Positions 83 to 23,213 of a DNA stretch of 38,955 bases are shown here, one piece after another. The notes under the pieces are model-generated. The model ran no database searches, was not told the origin of the DNA, and saw only the letters and a program-made list of their open reading frames with translations. The position numbers and the translations under genes were made by a program. The stretch is from a virus: positions 1-38,955 of IMG/VR virus record IMGVR_UViG_3300001528_000417. The stretch is one strand, 5' to 3'. Position 1 is the first letter of the stretch. Each line of letters begins with the position of its first letter.

Positions 83-565
83 CTACTCGTTCCATATCTT
101 TTCTATCTCCTCGTAAAACCGCCGCTTGACCTCTTCCATAACTTCTTCCCTTTTCAAAAACATTGAAGCGACAACGTGCGAATACGGCTCGACTTTACCG
201 ATTTTTCTGCCGAGCGAATCCTTTCCGCCCTTTTTCTTGCCCTTTTTCCCGGGACGTCCGAACTCAACGATAAGAACTCCGATATGCTCGCGGATAACCT
301 CGGTCGGGTAGCCAACATGAACGTGCCAGCCGCTTTTATCCTTGTATGTCCATAATTTCAGCCAGTCGGCGAACTGATGATATTTCGGATTCGGCGCGCT
401 CGCAAGCAGCCTTTTCTGTTCCTCAAGAAAGATCTGCCCCGCCTCGGCGACTACTTCCTTTGCGATACGGTCCTGAACCTTTTTGTCCATTTTGCGGAAT
501 TTCTCCTCAAGCGCCTGTATATCGCGCTGAAATCCGTCCAGTCCCAGATCTATATACCCGCTCAT
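83..565 (-). CDS. HK97 gp10-family head-tail/tail component protein
   Basis: 160 aa. The pattern ...HVHVGYP...IVEFGRPG...VEPYSH is typical of the gp10 family. ATGA overlap with the upstream ORF. Its position after the chaperone is atypical. Confidence 0.65.
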   Translation of the reverse strand: MSGYIDLGLDGFQRDIQALEEKFRKMDKKVQDRIAKEVVAEAGQIFLEEQKRLLASAPNPKYHQFADWLKLWTYKDKSGWHVHVGYPTEVIREHIGVLIVEFGRPGKKGKKKGGKDSLGRKIGKVEPYSHVVASMFLKREEVMEEVKRRFYEEIEKIWNE

Positions 566-1071
566 CAGTCATCATACCTCCGTATCTGTATCGGCGCTTT
601 CCTGTAGCCTTTTATAACCGCGTACCGCTCCCACCGCTCCGTTATTTCCCGAAGCGTCGCGCTCCAGAATTCTTCTTCGGGGCGGTGCATAATATCGCAG
701 TAAAGGCTCAGCATTGTTCCCGCGTTGGCTTTGTTTTCGCTCTTTTCGGTGTTCCCGTTCAGCGCGCTTAGCGGAAGCGCTTCGAGGACCGCGCGCTGTA
801 TAAGCGTTGTTACACTTTCGCTGCCGCCCGACATGAGCGCGTTGGTTATCTCGTCTTTCCGCTCATTTACCCCGAGCGTTTTAAGGCAGTCACGCAGTCC
901 CTCGGAAATGAACACCCGCGCTTTTGCCGCATTTTCGGAAATATCTCTTGTATCAAAGGGGCAAAGCCCCGATTTTTCTATATTTAAAAACGCCCTGTTA
1001 TCAAACCTAAACCAGAGCTTAGCTTCTCCGAACGGAAATTCCGTCCGCTTTTTCTCAATTTCGATAAACAT
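565..1071 (-). CDS. Tail assembly chaperone-like protein (gpG/gpT-like, apparently a single fused ORF)
   Basis: 168 aa immediately downstream of the major tail gene. SD GAGGTAG before the ATG. The call rests mostly on position. Confidence 0.5.
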   Translation of the reverse strand: MFIEIEKKRTEFPFGEAKLWFRFDNRAFLNIEKSGLCPFDTRDISENAAKARVFISEGLRDCLKTLGVNERKDEITNALMSGGSESVTTLIQRAVLEALPLSALNGNTEKSENKANAGTMLSLYCDIMHRPEEEFWSATLREITERWERYAVIKGYRKAPIQIRRYDD

Positions 1072-1092
1072 TTTCTACCTCATATATGTACT

Positions 1093-1120
1093 ATCCCCGC
1101 CGCCGCATTGACGGCGGGAT
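1093..1120 (-). promoter_or_regulatory. GC-rich stem-loop between the major tail and chaperone genes
   Basis: ATCCCGCCG-TCAATG-CGGCGG(C)GGGAT on the minus strand. No U-tract. Possible attenuator or mRNA stabiliser. Confidence 0.4.
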
Positions 1121-1134
1121 AATACAGCCTTGCC

Positions 1135-1791
1135 TTAGCCGCCCTGCTCCTCGCTGTCCGTGGGAGTTGTCGGGTAATGCCCTGCGGGAAGTCCGCCGAG
1201 CGCAGAACCGAACCACGCCGAAATAAGCGCCTTGCCGTCCTCTGTTGTGGGGTCAACACCGCGAAGAACGATAACGTCGTCGCCGTTCTTGATAAGCTGC
1301 TCATAGTCGCCGCTTATCTGAACAGACTGGAATTTCGCGCCGCTGTCGTCGGAAGTTTCAACGTTCTCCGCGCCCTCAGCGAACTTTACTTTCATGATTT
1401 TGTAAAGGTTCTTTGTGCCGTCCGCGCGGTCGGTCGAATATATCGCCATAACTGCGGGAACATAGTCGTCCTTGTTGTTAGTTACGGTCTTTGTGGTCGC
1501 GTCGTAGCTCTTTCCGAAAAGAAGCACCTCGTCCGAATTGTCGAGCGACGGCATTGTTATCTGAAGCTGTCCGCCCGCCTTTGCGACATAGCTTGCGACC
1601 GCCTGACCGCTTGCGTACATTTTGCTGCTGTTCATCTTCGGCGTGCGGCTTACCGAAATAGAAGCCTTGCTTATTTCAACAACGTCGCCATATGTGAGCG
1701 TGGAATCCGTGTCCGCCGCAAGCGGCGCGAATGCGAGGCGGTCGGTGCTGACCGACGGCGCTCTCGAAGTGTTTACAACTGTGTCTGCCAT
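1135..1791 (-). CDS. Major tail protein (phi13/TP901-like)
   Basis: 218 aa. Strong SD AAGGAGG. Sequence and position fit a siphovirus tail tube protein. Confidence 0.75.
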   Translation of the reverse strand: MADTVVNTSRAPSVSTDRLAFAPLAADTDSTLTYGDVVEISKASISVSRTPKMNSSKMYASGQAVASYVAKAGGQLQITMPSLDNSDEVLLFGKSYDATTKTVTNNKDDYVPAVMAIYSTDRADGTKNLYKIMKVKFAEGAENVETSDDSGAKFQSVQISGDYEQLIKNGDDVIVLRGVDPTTEDGKALISAWFGSALGGLPAGHYPTTPTDSEEQGG

Positions 1792-1794
1792 TTG

Positions 1795-2145
1795 TTATTC
1801 CTCCTTGTAGTAATTGCGGATAAAATCCATTACATAGTGCTTTTTGCAGGGGTACGGCGTGACCGTTCCCGCGTCCGTTCCGCTCTGATACTCATATCCG
1901 TGCGCGGCAAGCGTTTCGGCGATCTTCCGATAAAGCTCCCCGTCCGCCGAGGGGCTGAACACCGATACCGCCGCCCAAACGCTGAGCGCCTGCGGCTTTC
2001 CTGAAGCGTAGAAAACGGGCTTTTCGTGAAGCGTGTACGAGATATATTTCTCGGGTTCGTCGCTTTCGGAAAATTCGGGCATTCCGTGATAGTAAGGAAG
2101 TCCCGCCGCTTCGAGCGCCTCGTCAATATCCTTGTATACGTCCAT
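1795..2145 (-). CDS. Hypothetical head-tail joining / tail completion protein
   Basis: 116 aa. SD GGGGGT. Lies between the head-closure and major tail genes. Function inferred from position only. Confidence 0.4.
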   Translation of the reverse strand: MDVYKDIDEALEAAGLPYYHGMPEFSESDEPEKYISYTLHEKPVFYASGKPQALSVWAAVSVFSPSADGELYRKIAETLAAHGYEYQSGTDAGTVTPYPCKKHYVMDFIRNYYKEE

Positions 2146-2147
2146 AT

Positions 2148-2438
2148 TTACCCCCTAGAAAGTATCAGCTTTATGTGCAGGTCGTTATCGGTCCTGCCCG
2201 TGCTGCTGATTTTGTATTTCACGCCGCCATATTCGGCGTGGGTCTGTCTGCCGTATTCGCGGCGGTACATTACGGCTTGAAGCTCGGCGGAAACTCCCGC
2301 CGCCGCGGCAGCGTATTTTGTGGTAACTCCCATATCGGTCACCTCTGCCCATACGCGGGCTGCGTCCTGCTCTGTCGGCGGCGAAGTGCCTTTCCCGCTG
2401 ATTAGTGTGAAAAGCCGTAAACGGTTCTTGAATGCCAC
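2148..2438 (-). CDS. Head closure / head-tail adaptor protein (SPP1 gp16-like)
   Basis: Start moved to a GTG preceded by AGGAGG plus a 6-nt spacer (MAFKNRLRLF...). Family resemblance and position. Confidence 0.6.
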   Translation of the reverse strand: MAFKNRLRLFTLISGKGTSPPTEQDAARVWAEVTDMGVTTKYAAAAAGVSAELQAVMYRREYGRQTHAEYGGVKYKISSTGRTDNDLHIKLILSRG

Positions 2439-2448
2439 GGCGCACCTC

Positions 2449-2742
2449 CTACGCAAGCAAATTGCGGCTGTGCATATCGAGTATCTGCCGTGCCGTCGGG
2501 TTGAGCGTGTCGCGGCTGACCGTCATGCTGCGGTTGTTGTACATATCGTCAATGATACAGCAGCACGCAACGGTCATATCCTCGTGTTCGTCGAGCGTTT
2601 CCGCAGAAATTCCCGTATACCCGAGGATAAACGCCGTCGCGGCTGCCTTGTACATATCGACCAGCTTTGCGGTTTCTTCCGATTCATCGGAGATGCCGCT
2701 GTGCGCTCTGATAATATCAGCCGTCAGTTCGCTCAGCTTCAT
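2449..2742 (-). CDS. gp6-like head-tail connector protein
   Basis: 97 aa. The N-terminus MKLSELTADIIRAHSGISDESEE... is typical of gp6-like connectors. Lies downstream of the capsid gene. Confidence 0.65.
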   Translation of the reverse strand: MKLSELTADIIRAHSGISDESEETAKLVDMYKAAATAFILGYTGISAETLDEHEDMTVACCCIIDDMYNNRSMTVSRDTLNPTARQILDMHSRNLLA

Positions 2743-2950
2743 TTTTCTTACCCCTTGCGGACTTTTTTACAGGCTTCGCCGCTTCCTTTTCGGGTTCGGC
2801 TGCCGCTTCCTGCGCGACTTCCTCGGCGGGGACGATATGCCCCGCTTTCACAAGGTCAGCCGCAACATTTTCGTCCGATATTTCGAGAACTTCCCCCATT
2901 CTCGCCGAAACGGGAACACCGCAGAAGCTCGTTACTGCTCTATACTTCAT
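2717..2950 (-). CDS. Small hypothetical protein following the capsid gene
   Basis: 77 aa. SD GGAAAGGAG. Ala/Glu/Lys-rich C-terminus. Confidence 0.5.
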   Translation of the reverse strand: MKYRAVTSFCGVPVSARMGEVLEISDENVAADLVKAGHIVPAEEVAQEAAAEPEKEAAKPVKKSARGKKNEAERTDG

Positions 2951-2965
2951 GTGAAGCTCCTTTCC

Positions 2966-4129
2966 TTAGCCGCTTGCCGCCATTTTAAGAACGGCGAGGC
3001 GCTGCGCGTCCATTATCTTGCTGTCAAGCTCGATCCAGCCCACGATACCTACCGCGTGCTGCGTTGCGTACTTTTCCTTGAGGACTTCGATAGAAAGTTC
3101 CTCGCGGATATTTACCGCAAGTCCGCTGTAATCGCCGTAAAGGATAGGCTTTGCGTCCGCCGCGATTTCGGGCATATTGTCCGAGATATACACGGGCTTT
3201 CCGAGCAGACGATACGGGAATTCCTGCGTTACGTCGTCCTGGAGCAGGTATCTGTTATTGCTGTCCTTGAGCGTCTTTATCGCCGTGAAAGTCTTTGCGC
3301 TCATTGTCCAGCAAGCGTTGTGCTGATATGCCTGCTTAATGCTTGCCTGGAGCTTGATAAGCTCGTCGGTTGTTATCGCGGTTTTCGCTGCGGCTGTAAT
3401 GCCCGTTCCCGTAGAAAGCGCGCCCGTGCATTTGCTTGTCGTGCCGTTGAGCAGTTCCTTTTCGATGAAAATAGCGAACTTCTCCGCCATTACGTCGGTG
3501 ACAAATGAAACGAGCTGAACGTCCGCGCTGTTGAGCAGGGTCTTTCCGATGAGCGTGAGCGAACCGACAAGGTAGCCCGTAAGGTCAACCGAGGTAAATT
3601 CACCCGCGTTCGCGGTAAGCTCCGTAAAGTCGGAAGAATAGCCGACTGTCACGTCGTTGCTGTGGGTCGCGTCGGGACCGTATACGGGTATCTTGAGCGT
3701 TCCCTTTACATGGAAAATCGTCGCGCCGCTGAGAATGGGGCAAAGGTCGGTCGCCTTTTTTATCACCATCTGCGCGATAGTTGTCGGAACGATTGCCCCG
3801 TTCGCGCTCATAGTGAAGTTCTGTTCGTTCGCGCGTGTTTCGGGTGCTTTAAGCGTGCGGATATACTGCGCAAACTCTCTGATTTCCGATTCCTCGGTCG
3901 TTTCCTTTTTGGGTTCAGCTGCCGCCGCAGCGGGGACAGGTTCGGTAAAATCGCGCATTTCGCTGAGAGAAGCGAGCGTATCGTTGATACTTACGATTTC
4001 CGCCTTGATTTCGTCATAGCGCTTCTTCTCGTCCTCGTTAAAGGCACGTTCCTCCGTCTGGATTGTTGCCGTGAGCTTACCGAGTTCAGCGACAAGCTCG
4101 TTCTTTCTTTCCGTTAATTTCTTGTGCAT
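2966..4129 (-). CDS. Major capsid protein, HK97 family
   Basis: 387 aa. N-terminal coiled-coil delta-like region followed by an HK97-like body. Directly follows the prohead protease. SD AAAGGAG. Confidence 0.85.
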   Translation of the reverse strand: MHKKLTERKNELVAELGKLTATIQTEERAFNEDEKKRYDEIKAEIVSINDTLASLSEMRDFTEPVPAAAAAEPKKETTEESEIREFAQYIRTLKAPETRANEQNFTMSANGAIVPTTIAQMVIKKATDLCPILSGATIFHVKGTLKIPVYGPDATHSNDVTVGYSSDFTELTANAGEFTSVDLTGYLVGSLTLIGKTLLNSADVQLVSFVTDVMAEKFAIFIEKELLNGTTSKCTGALSTGTGITAAAKTAITTDELIKLQASIKQAYQHNACWTMSAKTFTAIKTLKDSNNRYLLQDDVTQEFPYRLLGKPVYISDNMPEIAADAKPILYGDYSGLAVNIREELSIEVLKEKYATQHAVGIVGWIELDSKIMDAQRLAVLKMAASG

Positions 4130-4141
4130 ATGTTACTCCTT

Positions 4142-4753
4142 TCATAAGGCAAGAATTTCTGCCTCGTGTTTGTAAAATTCCCAGGGTCTTTTTTTCTCGG
4201 ACGGTTCATTTCCGTCGGGCGCTTCGCCCTCGGGGTCAACTCCGCTGCGCAGTTCAAGGACCTCGCTTTCCTCGCCGCGAAACTCCACGGACGCGACCGA
4301 CGTTCCGATATATGCGGGCGTTTTGTCGAGTATCGACACTTCGCGCAGGTCGATTTCTTCGAGATTGCGGCGGCTGGTGTTCGGGTTGACTTCCTCCCAT
4401 GTGTCGCGCTTTCCGAAGAAGCCGAAGCTCCACCCGCGAAGCTCGCCGCGCCCCGCCTTGTCCGCAACTTCCGCGTCGCGGATAACCGCCCTTGCCCAAA
4501 GCCCGACACCGTCCTCATGCAGCTCAAGCGCGCCGTCTTTCGTGCTTCCGAGGATACGGCGGTGGTTGAACCGCAGCTCTATGTTGTCGTTTTTCTTCAG
4601 CGCTGCCGCGAACGTCCCGGGTCGGATACGTTCATAGAACGGCTTTGTCGCTTCCGAACACATTGACGGAGGAAGGCAGCGGCTGTCGCGGTCTACCGCG
4701 TTGACATACCCGCTTATGACGACCTCGCCCGCGCTCCTCACTTCGATTTTCAT
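4142..4753 (-). CDS. Prohead maturation protease, HK97 family
   Basis: Start set to ATG 4753 (MKIEVRSAG...) with SD GGGGGTGA. The longer track ORF runs into the repeat element. Family resemblance and position. Confidence 0.8.
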   Translation of the reverse strand: MKIEVRSAGEVVISGYVNAVDRDSRCLPPSMCSEATKPFYERIRPGTFAAALKKNDNIELRFNHRRILGSTKDGALELHEDGVGLWARAVIRDAEVADKAGRGELRGWSFGFFGKRDTWEEVNPNTSRRNLEEIDLREVSILDKTPAYIGTSVASVEFRGEESEVLELRSGVDPEGEAPDGNEPSEKKRPWEFYKHEAEILAL

Positions 4754-4771
4754 TTCATCACCCCCTTTCAA

Positions 4772-4829
4772 GGCATAAAAATAGCGCCTTGCACGCGAAT
4801 GCAAAACGCTGAATTTATTAAATTTTTGC
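4772..4829 (-). repeat. Conserved hairpin/U-tract/RBS element, copy A (hairpin 4783..4810)
   Basis: Minus strand reads AGCGTTTTGCA-TTCGCG-TGCAAGGCGCT followed by ATTTTTATG. Homologous to copies B-E. Confidence 0.8.
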
Positions 4830-4835
4830 ATAAGA

Positions 4836-4859
4836 AAACCGCCTTTTTACGGGCGGTTT
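4836..4859 (-). terminator. Rho-independent terminator after the DUF4926-like gene
   Basis: Minus strand reads AAACCGCC-CGTAAAAA-GGCGGTTT followed by TCTTATGC. Confidence 0.7.
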
Positions 4860-5016
4860 AGTCTATTACGTTCTCAATTTCTGACGAAGAAATCAATTCA
4901 GTTATATAATCTCCGCCAATATCAATGTCAACGACATAATCATCGCCAATGAGGTCAACCACAGAACCTTTTCGCCCGTCTTTAAGCAAAACAGTATCAT
5001 AAAGTTTAATTATCAT
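4858..5016 (-). CDS. DUF4926-like small protein (candidate antitoxin/immunity partner)
   Basis: 52 aa, not in the ORF track: MIIKLYDTVLLKDGRKGSVVDLIGDDYVVDIDIGGDYITELISSSEIENVID. Overlaps the upstream gene by 11 nt. Followed by a terminator. Confidence 0.6.
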   Translation of the reverse strand: MIIKLYDTVLLKDGRKGSVVDLIGDDYVVDIDIGGDYITELISSSEIENVID

Positions 5017-5602
5017 CGTTCCTCGTCACCTTCTTCTTTGTCACATATGCGCTTGTAAGCCGCGGTTCAGTCTTGCCATTCTCAATTATCCAGCTAGTGC
5101 AAACGTTAGCCTGCTTGCCATTAGCACCAGTCAGGCACATTACATATTCATAAAGCTGACCGTGGTCATTTGAACCTTTTAGTTTTAACTCGCTTTCATC
5201 AAGGTTTACAGAGATGTTGTCGATAAGTTCTTGATAATTGTCCATTGTATATCCCAAGGCTTCACGAAAAGCGCGTGCTTTGTCAGGCTGTCTCAATGGA
5301 TCAAGAGCATATTTTGTGAACTTCTCTTTCTTAATTTCAGCAAAATACTGCAAACTTATTTTTACCGGCTGTTTTTTATCTATTATACCACTTCCGCCCG
5401 AAATGTCAACCCCGTTTCCACTCGTAAACCGTCCATTTTTGGGGTCGTGGTTCGGGTTAAAGCGGAGTTCTTCCGCCTGCTCTTGCAGCTCCCTTATCTC
5501 CGCTTCAAGCCTGCGTATTTCCTCGTCCTTGCTGTTTGCTTCCAGTATCAAAGAACGCGCAAATTCCGCCGCGCATTCGTACATTGTTTTGTAATCCGTC
5601 AT
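5006..5602 (-). CDS. Cassette protein X1: conserved N-terminal module plus DUF6883-like C-terminal domain
   Basis: 198 aa. The N-terminus is shared with X2 and X3. The C-terminus KFTKYALDP..PDKARAFREALGYT...GQLYEYVM..TSWIIENGKTEPRLTSAYV matches the DUF6883 pattern. ATGA overlap with terS. Confidence 0.7.
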   Translation of the reverse strand: MTDYKTMYECAAEFARSLILEANSKDEEIRRLEAEIRELQEQAEELRFNPNHDPKNGRFTSGNGVDISGGSGIIDKKQPVKISLQYFAEIKKEKFTKYALDPLRQPDKARAFREALGYTMDNYQELIDNISVNLDESELKLKGSNDHGQLYEYVMCLTGANGKQANVCTSWIIENGKTEPRLTSAYVTKKKVTRNDDN

Positions 5603-6171
5603 GTTTCTTCCTCATCTTCCCCGCCCGAGAGCAGAGCTATAAGCGGGTTTTCTGCCGCCTTTGACGGTTCTTTCGGAATGGTTCTAAGCGCCGCCGAAAC
5701 CGTCATGCAGTTCTCTTTTTCAATGTCAAACATCATCTTTCGCTTCTGCATTATTGCGCTGTCATACCCCACTATTGCCTTGTGCAATGCCGTAAGCTGC
5801 TTTGAAAATGCTATAATCTCATCAAATTCCATACCGTCAAGCTCGGCAAATTTCTTCTCAAGCGCGTCGGCGGTTTCGTACAACATTTTCTGCTTATCCT
5901 CAAAGTCCAGACACTCCGAATAGATCATGCAGTATCGGTTTATCACAGGTCCGTACAGCGCATCATTCTTCCCGATAGCTTTCATCAACTTGTTCAGCCG
6001 CAGAAACTCCCTATGCGCGACCTTGTGCGCCTTTACCTCGCCTCGCTCGAACAATTCCGCCCCGCTGAGCATTGCCTTTTCTCCGTCGGCTCGCACCGCA
6101 AGTTCCGCCTTTGTCCTATGCGATTTCTTCTCCTCTGTAATGACTGCCACAGGCTTTGACGGTCTCCCCAT
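5599..6171 (-). CDS. terS: Terminase small subunit, P27 family
   Basis: 190 aa. The MGRPSKP... N-terminus and HNH neighbour are typical of P27-type TerS. SD GGGGGTGAGG. Confidence 0.75.
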   Translation of the reverse strand: MGRPSKPVAVITEEKKSHRTKAELAVRADGEKAMLSGAELFERGEVKAHKVAHREFLRLNKLMKAIGKNDALYGPVINRYCMIYSECLDFEDKQKMLYETADALEKKFAELDGMEFDEIIAFSKQLTALHKAIVGYDSAIMQKRKMMFDIEKENCMTVSAALRTIPKEPSKAAENPLIALLSGGEDEEET

Positions 6172-6303: not shown

Positions 6304-6705
6304 TCAAATTATGCTAATTCCCGCACCGTTTTCCTGTTCGGCGGCAATATCCAGCAGTTCCCGCGCAGGTATTCGACCGCGTTCGGCAAGCTCGTGGTGA
6401 TAGCGACAAAGTGTGATAAGGTTGCTATTGTCAAGCCGCCTGTCGAAGTCTGTCGCAAGTGAAATAATGTGATGAACGGACAGATCGCGGCTGTTGAACT
6501 TTTTGCGGGAATTGTACAGACCCCGCACGCACACCTGACACAAATTCATATCGCGCTCGCGTATCTCGTCCGCCTTGCGCTTCCAGATCTGACGGTTACG
6601 GAACGCATACGCTATGCTGTCCGACCTCGCCTGTGCTGCGCCGCAGGCTGTACAGATATAGTTTCTGTCGTGTATCTTTCCACACTTGCCGCACGCTTTT
6701 TTCAT
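6304..6705 (-). CDS. HNH endonuclease (packaging-associated)
   Basis: 133 aa. CxxC...CxxC plus the HHIISL...N..TLC..HH motif. Lies immediately upstream of terS. Confidence 0.85.
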   Translation of the reverse strand: MKKACGKCGKIHDRNYICTACGAAQARSDSIAYAFRNRQIWKRKADEIRERDMNLCQVCVRGLYNSRKKFNSRDLSVHHIISLATDFDRRLDNSNLITLCRYHHELAERGRIPARELLDIAAEQENGAGISII

Positions 6706-21894: not shown

Positions 21895-22043
21895 AATGAT
21901 TAGGGATGTAGTCAGGGTGTAATCAATCTCCGGTTATTATGTGTCGCGTGCTATCTTTTATGCAGTTTGTTGTAGCTAAGAGTATTATTCTTGTACACTT
22001 TTCACAAATATAGCAATATTGATATTTTTTCTTCGAAAACCTC

Positions 22044-22072
22044 TTGACATTATGCCAATATTGATATATAAT
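22044..22072 (+). promoter_or_regulatory. Consensus promoter with palindromic operators (copy 1 of the duplicated region 21991..22118)
   Basis: TTGACA-17 nt-TATAAT. CAATATTGAT half-palindromes at 22012..22023 and 22054..22065, the second inside the spacer. Confidence 0.75.
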
Positions 22073-22125
22073 AGAGACATCAAAGGGAAAGGAAAATCCC
22101 GAAAACCAGAAAGGATAAAAAAATT

Positions 22126-23051: not shown

Positions 23052-23134
23052 GTATATATCGCGTGTTTTGTTGTGCCGTTTTTGTACACATTTTACAAAA
23101 ATATCAATATTGATATATTTTTCTCGGGAAGTCT

Positions 23135-23163
23135 TTGACAATATATCAATATTGATATATAAT
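23135..23163 (+). promoter_or_regulatory. Consensus promoter with palindromic operators (copy 2 of the duplicated region 23082..23208)
   Basis: TTGACA-17 nt-TATAAT. Perfect palindrome ATCAATATTGAT at 23103..23114 and 23145..23156. Confidence 0.75.
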
Positions 23164-23213
23164 AGAGACATCAAAGGGAAAGGAAAATCCCAAAAACCAG
23201 AAAGGTATACGAA

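Follow-up and report, generated by a model that had tools for sequence, protein, structure and literature searches.

Polymorphic toxins carried by phages are common in the human gut, and how they are delivered and controlled is still a matter of conjecture. Membership in one family, the MuF toxins, is set by an N-terminal MuF domain (PF04233, PF06152, MuF3, or MuF4). Delivery within the virion has precedents in the MuF toxins (PMC5576092), for which it is itself a proposal in the literature, and in the polyvalent proteins (PMC5512222). A preprint describes DUF6883 (“BECR-Tox3”) as a colicin-like BECR RNase that commonly has a DUF4926 gene downstream and is frequently fused to Phage_Mu_F (bioRxiv 10.64898/2026.08.28.747851). 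Here, we analyzed a viral stretch of 38,955 nt (the window) from a phage of a gut bacterium, in which a gene called X1 combines a DUF6883 domain with a different N-terminal partner and is followed by a 52-aa ORF. We conclude that X1 and this ORF probably form a phage-borne polymorphic toxin–immunity cassette, a variant of the known phage polymorphic toxins and not a new kind of system. New here is a predicted σ70 promoter, a perfect consensus match, that lies inside the module junction and is conserved at the DNA level.

Genomic Context of X1

X1 (5006..5602 on the minus strand, as are all features given below) encodes a protein of 198 aa that consists, according to the ORF list and Pfam, of an N-terminal module (N-module, residues 1–74), a variable linker, and a DUF6883 toxin domain. 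Its start codon shares tcat/ATGA at 5599–5602 with the stop codon of terS, the gene for the small terminase subunit (5599..6171; PHROG 83, E 6e-9, with a weak match to Pfam Terminase_4), which bears out the ATGA overlap read by an earlier note on this DNA. On its other side, the pair is followed by the gene for the prohead serine protease (4142..4753; Pfam Peptidase_S78, E 9e-31), and the placement between terS and the protease proposed in that note thus stands. The protease likely starts at the ATG at 4753, which gives 203 aa as called in two sister phages (L055 and L058); an alternative longer ORF of 229 aa runs through an ∼80-nt repeat element, as seen in an alignment of the element’s copies. 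We found 110 relatives of X1. A tblastn search of 50,697 deposited phage genomes returned no X1, so no cultured system is at hand.

The same note had placed X1 in the slot where terL and portal normally sit, a description that is misleading, because this lineage has both genes downstream of the tail-tube genes in many assemblies. The window contains them within 33431–36725 (portal at 33431–35020, Pfam Phage_portal E 5e-52; terL, the large terminase, at 35031–36725, TerL_nuclease E 2e-29 and TerL_ATPase E 3e-15), and the cassette therefore does not replace them; they are displaced. Because an alternative path through the three direct N-module repeats would give the canonical order terS-terL-portal-protease, we suspected a misassembly, with permuted segments of a circular contig. 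We rejected this explanation, since the order recurs in independent contigs of other samples, assembled with MEGAHIT and SPAdes, among them prophages with host flanks and a 31.7-kb contig that spans terS to the tape measure gene. An ancient rearrangement via the N-module repeats is possible.

The DUF6883 Domain of X1

The C-terminal part of X1 (residues 89–189; 5036..5338) matched DUF6883 (PF21814) with 63.9 bits against a curated cut-off of 27 bits (E 2e-17; profile positions 9–110 of 110), confirming the assignment first made from a sequence signature. An AlphaFold model of the domain (pLDDT 88.9) shows a helix-helix-helix arrangement followed by four strands. The best match in the PDB was the CdiA-CT (Kp342) tRNase toxin (PDB ID code 6cp9; TM about 0.63, range 0.61–0.64, probability 1.0), a moderate match with a Foldseek E of 3e-3 and 10% identity, and the next was HigB2. 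In a viral library, the domain matched the C termini of “minor capsid proteins.” The model and its moderate match suggest a BECR (Barnase/EndoU/Colicin/RelE) fold with N-terminal helices packed on a four-stranded antiparallel sheet, and the domain is thus predicted most likely to be an RNA-cutting toxin. Across the family, the polar residues K94, Y98, K108, N161, T169, R181, and T183 are invariant or nearly so, and the family alignment contains no conserved histidine within the domain. In relatives, DUF6883 either stands by itself or forms the C-terminal part of proteins with Phage_Mu_F, Phage_min_cap2, or DUF5662.

A Small Protein Accompanies DUF6883

The 52-aa ORF (4858..5016) overlaps X1 by 11 nt, just where it had been noticed before, and is preceded by the Shine–Dalgarno sequence AAGGTGA. 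It is a real gene, as judged by its 752 database relatives, its family’s fixed position after DUF6883 genes, and the high confidence of its AlphaFold model (pLDDT 95.4). The predicted protein is an SH3-like five-stranded β-barrel that resembles SH3, KOW, and NdhS folds (TM 0.73–0.83); the model has no helix-turn-helix (HTH), RHH, or AbrB fold and no DNA-binding domain. Members of the small-ORF family have 50–72 aa and lie downstream of DUF6883 in 32 of 35 genome loci, irrespective of the toxin domain’s fusion partner; a homologous small ORF also comes after DUF6883 in the loci L011–L019. A conserved neighboring pair, which the earlier note had described for bacteria, is thereby supported, and the preprint reports the same (10.64898/2026.08.28.747851).

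Kinship of the small protein with DUF4926 held up only in part. We ran the Pfam/HMM search that had been proposed for both ORFs; it recovered DUF6883 but not DUF4926, and the 52-aa ORF had no Pfam match whatever, even at E ≤ 10, DUF4926 (PF16277; curated cut-off 29.1 bits) included. Among the family members encoded downstream of DUF6883 genes, 13 of 26 did match PF16277, all below threshold (best 28.4 bits, E 1e-6), and an HMM built from members less than 40% identical to the window ORF recovered that ORF with an E of 1.3e-8. These profile comparisons point to a remote homology at most between the predicted immunity protein and DUF4926.

A Constant Module with Exchangeable Cassettes

The N-module (5381..5602) comprises a predicted coiled-coil helix, the linker motif RFNPNHDPKNGRFTSG (about 5417–5461), and the Gly-rich segment VDISGGSGII. 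The N terminus resembles a coiled coil, with weak matches in Pfam. No family in Pfam, PHROGs, or NCBIfam covers the module, and neither PADLOC nor profile searches against PDB sequences yielded a family covering it; none of PHROGs, NCBIfam, PADLOC, and the PDB profile searches names the pair. In the window, the module is present in three DNA copies (5373–5596; 32408–32631, 90% identical; 38725–38948, 71% identical), in line with the proposal that a shared, phage-specific module is fused to the DUF6883 part. These copies occupy three slots. The second slot (paralogue B, 38373..38936) joins the N-module to a PBECR2 nuclease domain (Pfam PBECR2, E 1.5e-16), and the third (paralogue C, 32152..32646) joins it to a C-terminal region of ∼85 aa of unknown kind and has an in-frame TGA at codon 13. 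In relatives, the fusion partners of the module include Ntox50, CdiA_C, PBECR2/3, and many domains without a Pfam match, and the sequences diverge directly after GGSGII.

Comparison with the sister phages L058 and L055 by blastn located the junction. Identity is 93–97%, breaks at 5381, exactly at the end of the N-module, and resumes at 4860 (L058) or 4838–4845 (L055). These breakpoints delimit the swapped unit (4861..5380), which contains the toxin domain and the small gene. Other toxins in the same slot have other small partners: Ntox50 is followed by an ORF of 67 aa, a 165-aa toxin by one of 77 aa, and a 213-aa toxin by one of 99 aa. The locus thus has two traits by which polymorphic toxins are recognized, namely a constant N-terminal region with a sharp junction to unrelated alternative C-terminal domains, and a downstream small gene, putatively for immunity, that covaries with the toxin domain. 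In such toxins, the N-terminal region also determines the route of export or delivery.

Two motifs in and behind the N-module have counterparts elsewhere. The linker motif, FNPNHDPxxGRF in general form, is an inter-domain linker in polyvalent proteins, where it repeats two to seven times per protein; these proteins carry ART-PolyVal, NUDIX, and Peptidase_S78_2 domains. A two-domain intermediate (P0234) has the N-module, one domain, the linker, and then PBECR2. A search of the paper on polyvalent proteins (PMC5512222) for the GRF linker turned up no account of it. Just before the toxin domain, at residues 83–88 (5339..5356), the sequence reads SLQYF|A, which resembles the L27/Prp cleavage motif of Firmicutes, published as (D/N)LQ(F/L)F'A (PMC9405229; PMC5744158). 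Relatives have NLQFFAK or NLQLFAK, and X1 may be cleaved at its SLQYF|A motif.

A Predicted Promoter Embedded in the Junction

The last 10 codons of the N-module, which encode VDISGGSGII, coincide with a predicted σ70-type promoter (5382..5409; TTGACA-16 nt-(TG)nTATAAT, a 12/12 match) whose predicted start is near 5375. Perfect σ70 sites number seven in the window against 0.01 expected. In 18 of 35 genome loci, the 100 nt ahead of the domain hold a match of at least 11/12, at a fixed position; chance would give ∼0.3 such loci (background rate, 22 per 259 kb). The hexamers persist across lineages that differ in spacer, encoded peptide, and reading frame, with the −35 hexamer standing in differing frames between lineages; what is conserved is the DNA sequence. 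The immunity gene is probably expressed from this promoter. Nuclease colicins likewise have the immunity promoter within the toxin gene. Downstream of the predicted transcription start, in-frame start codons with a Shine–Dalgarno sequence are lacking for the toxin domain. In some free-standing DUF6883 genes (L023 and L026), the −10 box overlaps the annotated ATG, an arrangement not easily squared with toxin expression from such a promoter. Paralogue B has no embedded promoter, and the feature is therefore not universal. Paralogue C keeps a perfect embedded promoter (32417–32444) and a downstream ORF of 70 aa (31947–32159) despite the nonsense codon in its toxin gene, which we count in favor of a toxin–immunity cassette.

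A terminator-like hairpin, T1 (4831..4859), directly follows the small ORF. Its 8-bp GC-rich stem, AAACCGCC...GGCGGUUU, begins within the stop codon of the ORF and is followed by a U-run, so the ORF has a putative terminator of its own, as had been suggested. RNA folding of 4760–4865 gave −34 kcal/mol (z −2.9). The ∼80-nt repeat element (4753..4831), present in four copies in the window and matching no Rfam family at the gathering threshold, bounds the cassette on its 3′ side and lies ahead of the start codon of the protease. It contains a 12-bp hairpin (4783–4810), a U-run, and a ribosome-binding site; in a terminator scan and RNA folding, the hairpin is a second terminator-like structure.

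Proposed Mechanism and Alternatives

Within a polymorphic toxin–immunity cassette, full-length toxin would be made late, by translational coupling to terS. A transcript from the embedded promoter would yield immunity protein apart from the late operon, either in the lysogenic state or soon after the phage enters a cell, because the toxin domain lacks a start codon and Shine–Dalgarno sequence there and the 52-aa ORF has a good one. Both terminators would block read-through of this transcript into the protease and capsid genes, and the immunity protein would bind and block the RNase domain. With less assurance, we suggest that the N-module could be a handle for delivery or processing, by which the toxin would enter the virion and later be injected, as has been proposed for MuF toxins and polyvalent proteins, and that the RFNPNHDPKNGRFTSG linker or SLQYF|A could be a proteolytic release site. 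Virion delivery of X1 would fit its context, a late structural operon, and a linker common to polyvalent proteins.

A more ambitious joint reading, which we offer tentatively and think rather doubtful as a whole, is that the N-module marks an undescribed family of phage polymorphic toxins and is a portable capsid-loading tag, with the junction as promoter and the linker possibly as a site for the prohead protease. The tag, made up of the helix and the FNPNHDPxxGRF linker, would bring a variety of toxin domains into the capsid, to be injected from there. Via the junction promoter, immunity would be made at once from a phage genome, whether incoming or resident, and the poisoned cell would be one that destroys the incoming DNA or a lysogen with a different cassette. 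A skipping-rope RNA would then be the matching partner of the PBECR2 cassette.

The pair might instead be a classical type II toxin–antitoxin or abortive-infection system that acts in the lysogen, for addiction or anti-phage defense, with the small protein as a labile antitoxin and the N-module incidental. Bacterial genomes do contain free-standing DUF6883 genes (108–131 aa) with a small ORF and their own promoter, one such pair (L011) adjoins an AbiEii gene, and HigB2, among the fold matches, is RelE-like. However, the embedded promoter is not followed by a separate start codon for the X1 toxin domain, so toxin would come only from the late operon, coupled to terS. The toxin gene stands first, the small protein lacks a DNA-binding fold, no defense model matched in a PADLOC search, and the N-module bears many unrelated toxin domains, with the cassette swapped in the manner of polymorphic toxin tips. 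Type II systems are recognized by a DNA-binding, autoregulating antitoxin in a two-gene operon expressed in resting cells, a description that this locus does not fit. We consider this alternative unlikely, and the toxin-antitoxin-type module suspected by the earlier note is better described as a polymorphic toxin, given the constant N-module, the sharp junction, the swapped cassette, the absence of a DNA-binding domain, and the small gene’s downstream position.

Another possibility is that X1 is an injected anti-defense or host-takeover effector: the packaged RNase would cut host defense RNAs (e.g., CRISPR RNAs) or host mRNAs, and the small protein would silence it in the producer cell. Iyer et al. 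proposed such a role for PBECR domains that phages carry as fusions to MuF or portal proteins (PMC5512222), and both the position of X1 within the structural operon and the linker shared with polyvalent proteins would agree with it. Most of its steps are common to the polymorphic toxin–immunity cassette, the target alone being different. Polymorphic cassettes with matched immunity genes and a separate immunity promoter, however, fit selection for lysogen immunity, and Ntox50 and CdiA_C, which occur on the same N-module, are classical inter-bacterial toxins. An effector directed at the infected host therefore seems decidedly improbable.

That X1 is a nontoxic, scaffold-like or head-assembly factor comparable to MuF-C of phage Mu, its BECR domain inactive but binding RNA or DNA, and the 52-aa protein a chaperone or head decoration, is very unlikely in spite of its place between terS and the prohead protease, its weakly coiled-coil-like N terminus, and the Mu gp30 PBECR domain that Iyer et al. 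regard as inactive (PMC5512222), because sister phages with flanks 93–97% identical carry Ntox50 or other domains there, which makes the C-terminal domain dispensable for assembly, the major capsid protein already has its own N-terminal scaffold-like region, and the polar residues of the domain are (nearly) invariant.

If X1 and the small gene do form a toxin–immunity cassette, this lineage is a natural and compact one in which to test their delivery and control, with a constant module of 74 residues compared with the roughly 300-residue MuF domain, three exchangeable slots per 39-kb genome, and cleanly defined cassette boundaries. The predicted pair of internal promoter and terminator would explain how a lysogen is immune without late-gene expression. 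Should the N-module indeed target its cargo to the virion, it would be a short tag by which phage particles could be loaded with proteins. DUF6883, an uncharacterized domain, and the DUF4926-like protein paired with it also gain a concrete and testable predicted function.

Comparison with Known Systems

The MuF toxins (Jamet et al. 2017, PMC5576092) share with X1 an origin in temperate phages (of Firmicutes for MuF), a position in the head/packaging region, a constant N-terminal portion to which varying C-terminal toxins (mostly nucleases) are attached, a small downstream ORF as putative immunity gene, and abundance in the human gut; in relatives, the same DUF6883 domain is joined to Phage_Mu_F or Phage_min_cap2. 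In contrast to them, X1 lacks a MuF domain as judged by Pfam, with no match at E ≤ 1 to PF04233 or PF06152, and its constant part is a 74-residue module outside Pfam, PHROGs, and NCBIfam. It follows terS, whereas genes for MuF toxins are recognized by a place directly behind portal. The genome here has three slots, in contrast to the single muf gene that is nearly always seen in MuF phages, and X1 has an embedded promoter, a feature not described for MuF toxins in the literature that we examined.

With the BECR-Tox3/DUF4926 pairs (bioRxiv 10.64898/2026.08.28.747851), the locus has in common the toxin family (HMM match above threshold), a small conserved downstream gene, and the association with phages. 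It differs in its small protein, which at 52 aa represents a short and divergent branch below the DUF4926 threshold, and in the N-terminal partner of X1, which is the new module instead of Phage_Mu_F. As in polyvalent proteins and PBECR effectors (Iyer et al. 2017, PMC5512222), BECR-type nuclease domains occur among virion genes. Large polyvalent proteins also use the N-module linker FNPNHDPKNGRFTSG between their domains. Unlike these, X1 has a single effector domain, a dedicated (predicted) immunity gene, and no peptidase domain of its own. Nuclease colicins and CdiA-CT/CdiI resemble the locus in having a C-terminal RNase toxin domain with an immunity gene directly downstream, and a CdiA-CT tRNase (6cp9) is the best structural match to the X1 domain. 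X1, however, comes without a secretion system and lacks domains for receptor binding or translocation, so its delivery would rely on the phage particle.

Results

X1 (5006-5602, minus strand) and the 52-aa ORF that follows it (4858-5016, minus strand) are probably a toxin–immunity cassette of the polymorphic-toxin kind. Residues 89-189 of X1 match Pfam DUF6883 well over threshold (63.9 bits, E = 2e-17), as the earlier note had proposed. The AlphaFold model of this domain (pLDDT 88.9) has three helices ahead of a four-stranded sheet, and its top solved-structure matches were the four toxin chains of 6cp9, a CdiA-CT/CdiI complex from Klebsiella pneumoniae 342 (TM 0.61-0.64, probability 1.0), followed by HigB2. 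Its matches in a viral structure library (TM 0.79-0.88) were the C-terminal ends of "minor capsid proteins" from metagenomes. A 2026 preprint assigns DUF6883 ("BECR-Tox3") to the colicin-like branch within the BECR ribonucleases and reports it commonly with a downstream DUF4926 gene and in Phage_Mu_F fusions (bioRxiv 10.64898/2026.08.28.747851). The matches of the modeled X1 domain agree with this placement.

The 52-aa ORF is a real gene despite having no Pfam match, even at E ≤ 10, since it has 752 database relatives (50-70 aa), a confident model (pLDDT 95.4; a five-stranded SH3/KOW-like barrel), and a conserved position: its homologs lie directly 3′ of the DUF6883 gene in every context examined. 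They follow DUF6883 in 32 of 35 bacterial-genome loci, mainly from Oscillospiraceae, Ruminococcaceae, and Lachnospiraceae, which bears out the suspicion of a neighboring pair. The proposed DUF4926 identity held only as remote homology. DUF4926 matches with consistent register occurred in 13 of 26 homologs found after DUF6883 genes, all under the 29.1-bit cutoff (best 28.4 bits), and a profile limited to members <40% identical to the ORF of the window recovered that ORF at E = 1.3e-8. Because of these two links, "DUF4926-like" is reasonable as a label for remote homology, although the ORF falls short of formal membership.

The relatives of X1 formed two sets. In the set sharing DUF6883, the domain either stands alone (108-131 aa) or lies on the C-terminal side of Phage_Mu_F, Phage_min_cap2, or DUF5662. 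Members of the other set have in common only the first ∼74 residues (the N-module), ending ...RFNPNHDPKNGRFTSGNGVDISGGSGII, after which the proteins diverge abruptly to Ntox50, CdiA_C, PBECR2/3, or unknown domains. As anticipated, the module is shared within the window, which holds three N-module genes: X1, a PBECR2 fusion (paralog B, 38373-38936, E = 1.5e-16), and a third copy (paralog C, 32152-32646). Sister phages with the same backbone carry different toxin/small-ORF pairs in X1's slot, such as Ntox50 with a 67-aa ORF or a 165-aa toxin with a 77-aa ORF. In blastn, the sister phages L058 and L055 were 93-97% identical to the window, with identity breaking exactly at 5381 and resuming at 4860 in L058 and at 4838-4845 in L055; the DUF6883 domain and the 52-aa ORF thus make up precisely the unit that is exchanged. 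In some relatives (L009 and L010, 1-2600), slot 1, the site of X1, holds two tandem cassettes: X1 and the 52-aa ORF, followed by a 264-aa N-module toxin and a 124-aa ORF.

Paralog C has an in-frame TGA at codon 13 (32608-32610; MYE*AAEF), where relatives have Cys; six other window genes end normally on TGA. The TGA at codon 13 may be a sequencing error. The embedded promoter of paralog C and its downstream 70-aa ORF (31947-32159) are intact, resembling an orphan immunity locus.

On the minus strand, the cassette follows genes for an HNH endonuclease (6304-6705) and terS (5599-6171; PHROG 83, E = 6e-9) and precedes those for an S78 prohead protease (E = 9e-31) and an HK97-type major capsid protein (2966-4129). 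The X1 start codon overlaps the terS stop as ATGA, as described earlier, and the 52-aa ORF overlaps X1 by 11 nt, with AAGGTGA as its Shine–Dalgarno sequence. The cassette had been thought to occupy the usual terL/portal slot; it replaces neither gene, because TerL (35031-36725) and portal (33431-35020) are both present and the same order recurs in other assemblies. The lineage order is terS, slot 1 (X1's site), protease, capsid, connector and tail-tube genes, slot 2 (paralog B), terL, portal, in some cases slot 3 (paralog C), and tape measure. Protease, capsid, connector, and tail-tube genes thus stand, unusually, between terS and terL/portal (33431-36725 versus 83-6171), and terL and portal lie directly upstream of the tape measure gene. 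Repeat-driven misassembly was rejected because many independent contigs, among them MEGAHIT and SPAdes assemblies of other samples, and host-flanked prophages show the same order. N-module repeats flank the displaced terL–portal block, which suggests an old rearrangement through them. A 75-nt terminal repeat (bases 1-75 are identical to 38881-38955) shows that the ∼38.9-kb assembly in the window is circular and complete. In one relative's scaffold (L002, 7900-13086), the whole protease–capsid block is repeated after a CdiA_C toxin, probably a repeat-induced scaffolding artifact.

The X1 codons for VDISGGSGII (5409→5382) read TTGACA-16 nt-TGnTATAAT, which fits the σ70 consensus at 12/12 positions and includes an extended -10. 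The window has seven perfect sites versus 0.01 expected by chance. One lies in paralog C at the position equivalent to X1's. Perfect TTGACA-N16-18-TATAAT sites outside the toxin genes are at 13613-13641 (+), 17117-17145 (-), 22044-22072 (+), 23135-23163 (+), and 37839-37867 (+); two of these five fall inside a 127-nt direct repeat (21988-22114, 23079-23205). Among the 35 genome loci, 18 had a match of at least 11/12 no more than 100 nt upstream of the DUF6883 domain (10 of them perfect), compared with ∼0.3 expected from a background of 22 per 259 kb, and the promoter-to-domain distance was fixed in most of the 18. The hexamers are kept across lineages while the spacer (16 or 17 nt), the encoded peptide, and the reading frame of the -35 hexamer (GTT GAC A.. 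versus TTG ACA) vary, a pattern that points to selection on DNA rather than on peptide. In truly free-standing genes (L046, L049, and L050), the start codon after the promoter is either normal or leaderless. Against generality, paralog B lacks the embedded promoter, and the annotated ATG and the -10 box overlap in two loci (L023 and L026).

X1 has no in-frame start codon with a Shine–Dalgarno sequence 3′ of the predicted transcription start, whereas the 52-aa ORF has a good one. The terminator predicted after this ORF proved to be two terminator-like hairpins, the second belonging to an ∼80-nt element present in four copies, all on the minus strand (4753-4831, 31863-31941, 32648-32719, and 36877-36955). 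The element, which had no Rfam match, comprises a 12-bp hairpin, a U-run, and a ribosome-binding site, and always lies at a toxin-slot edge, directly upstream of the protease, tape measure, paralog C, or a short ORF before terL. It resembles an insulating terminator through which late transcription would have to pass. The simplest reading of promoter and hairpins is that the stretch between them would form a transcription unit of its own inside the late operon, from which immunity could be made without late-gene activation.

About 30 nt downstream of paralog B, where other cassettes keep the immunity ORF, lies a skipping-rope RNA (Rfam RF02924; 38247-38342, minus strand). Each of the four related loci that have PBECR2 in slot 2 carries the RNA (L003, 7247-7342; L007, 7346-7441; L055, 13211-13305; and L056, 7432-7526), with scores of 53-56 bits versus a cutoff of 36.7, whereas the four loci with other slot-2 toxins lack it. 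This RNA class has no assigned function (PMC5737381); here it may be a partner or antidote of the PBECR2 nuclease. Past it (∼37905-38080, minus strand) are a terminator, a promoter with an 11/12 match, and a gene, missing from the ORF list, for a 58-aa ribbon-helix-helix protein (Pfam RHH_1, E = 6e-6) that may act on the PBECR2 cassette as antitoxin or regulator.

No family in Pfam, PHROG, or NCBIfam covers the N-module, and when 1.8 billion representative proteins were scanned in full, only 22 matched it at E ≤ 1e-10. In the same scan, residues 35-72 (the FNPNHDPKNGRFTSG linker) recurred two to seven times per protein, between domains, in proteins of 500-3700 aa, with the consensus (K/R)FNxNHDPxxGRFT(S/T)G. 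Five linker-bearing proteins were scanned against Pfam (P0235, P0239, P0241, P0255, and P0234). Three large ones (P0235, P0239, and P0255) carried polyvalent-type domains (ART-PolyVal, NUDIX, Gln_amidase, or Peptidase_S78_2, the last prohead-protease-like); a 498-aa protein consisted of N-module, middle domain, linker again, and PBECR2. The linker, which the polyvalent-protein paper does not mention (PMC5512222), is a candidate processing site.

Discussion

The earlier observation was largely correct and its interpretation partly so: the pair is probably a polymorphic toxin–immunity cassette, it does not replace terL and portal, and its DUF4926 likeness is remote. Directly ahead of the toxin domain, X1 has SLQYF|A and its relatives have NLQFFAK or NLQLFAK, resembling the (D/N)LQ(F/L)F'A site at which the host protease Prp cleaves ribosomal protein L27 as well as the capsid and scaffold proteins of phage 80α (PMC5744158, PMC9405229). 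Virion packaging and proteolytic release have been proposed for MuF toxins and polyvalent proteins (PMC5576092, PMC5512222). By analogy, the linker, the Prp-like motif, and the late-operon position would fit packaging of X1 in the virion followed by its release by proteolysis. MuF toxins are the closest known kind, from which the X1 cassette differs in its new short N-module, its several slots per genome, and its embedded promoter; it is this promoter, set in the N-module junction, that is new here.
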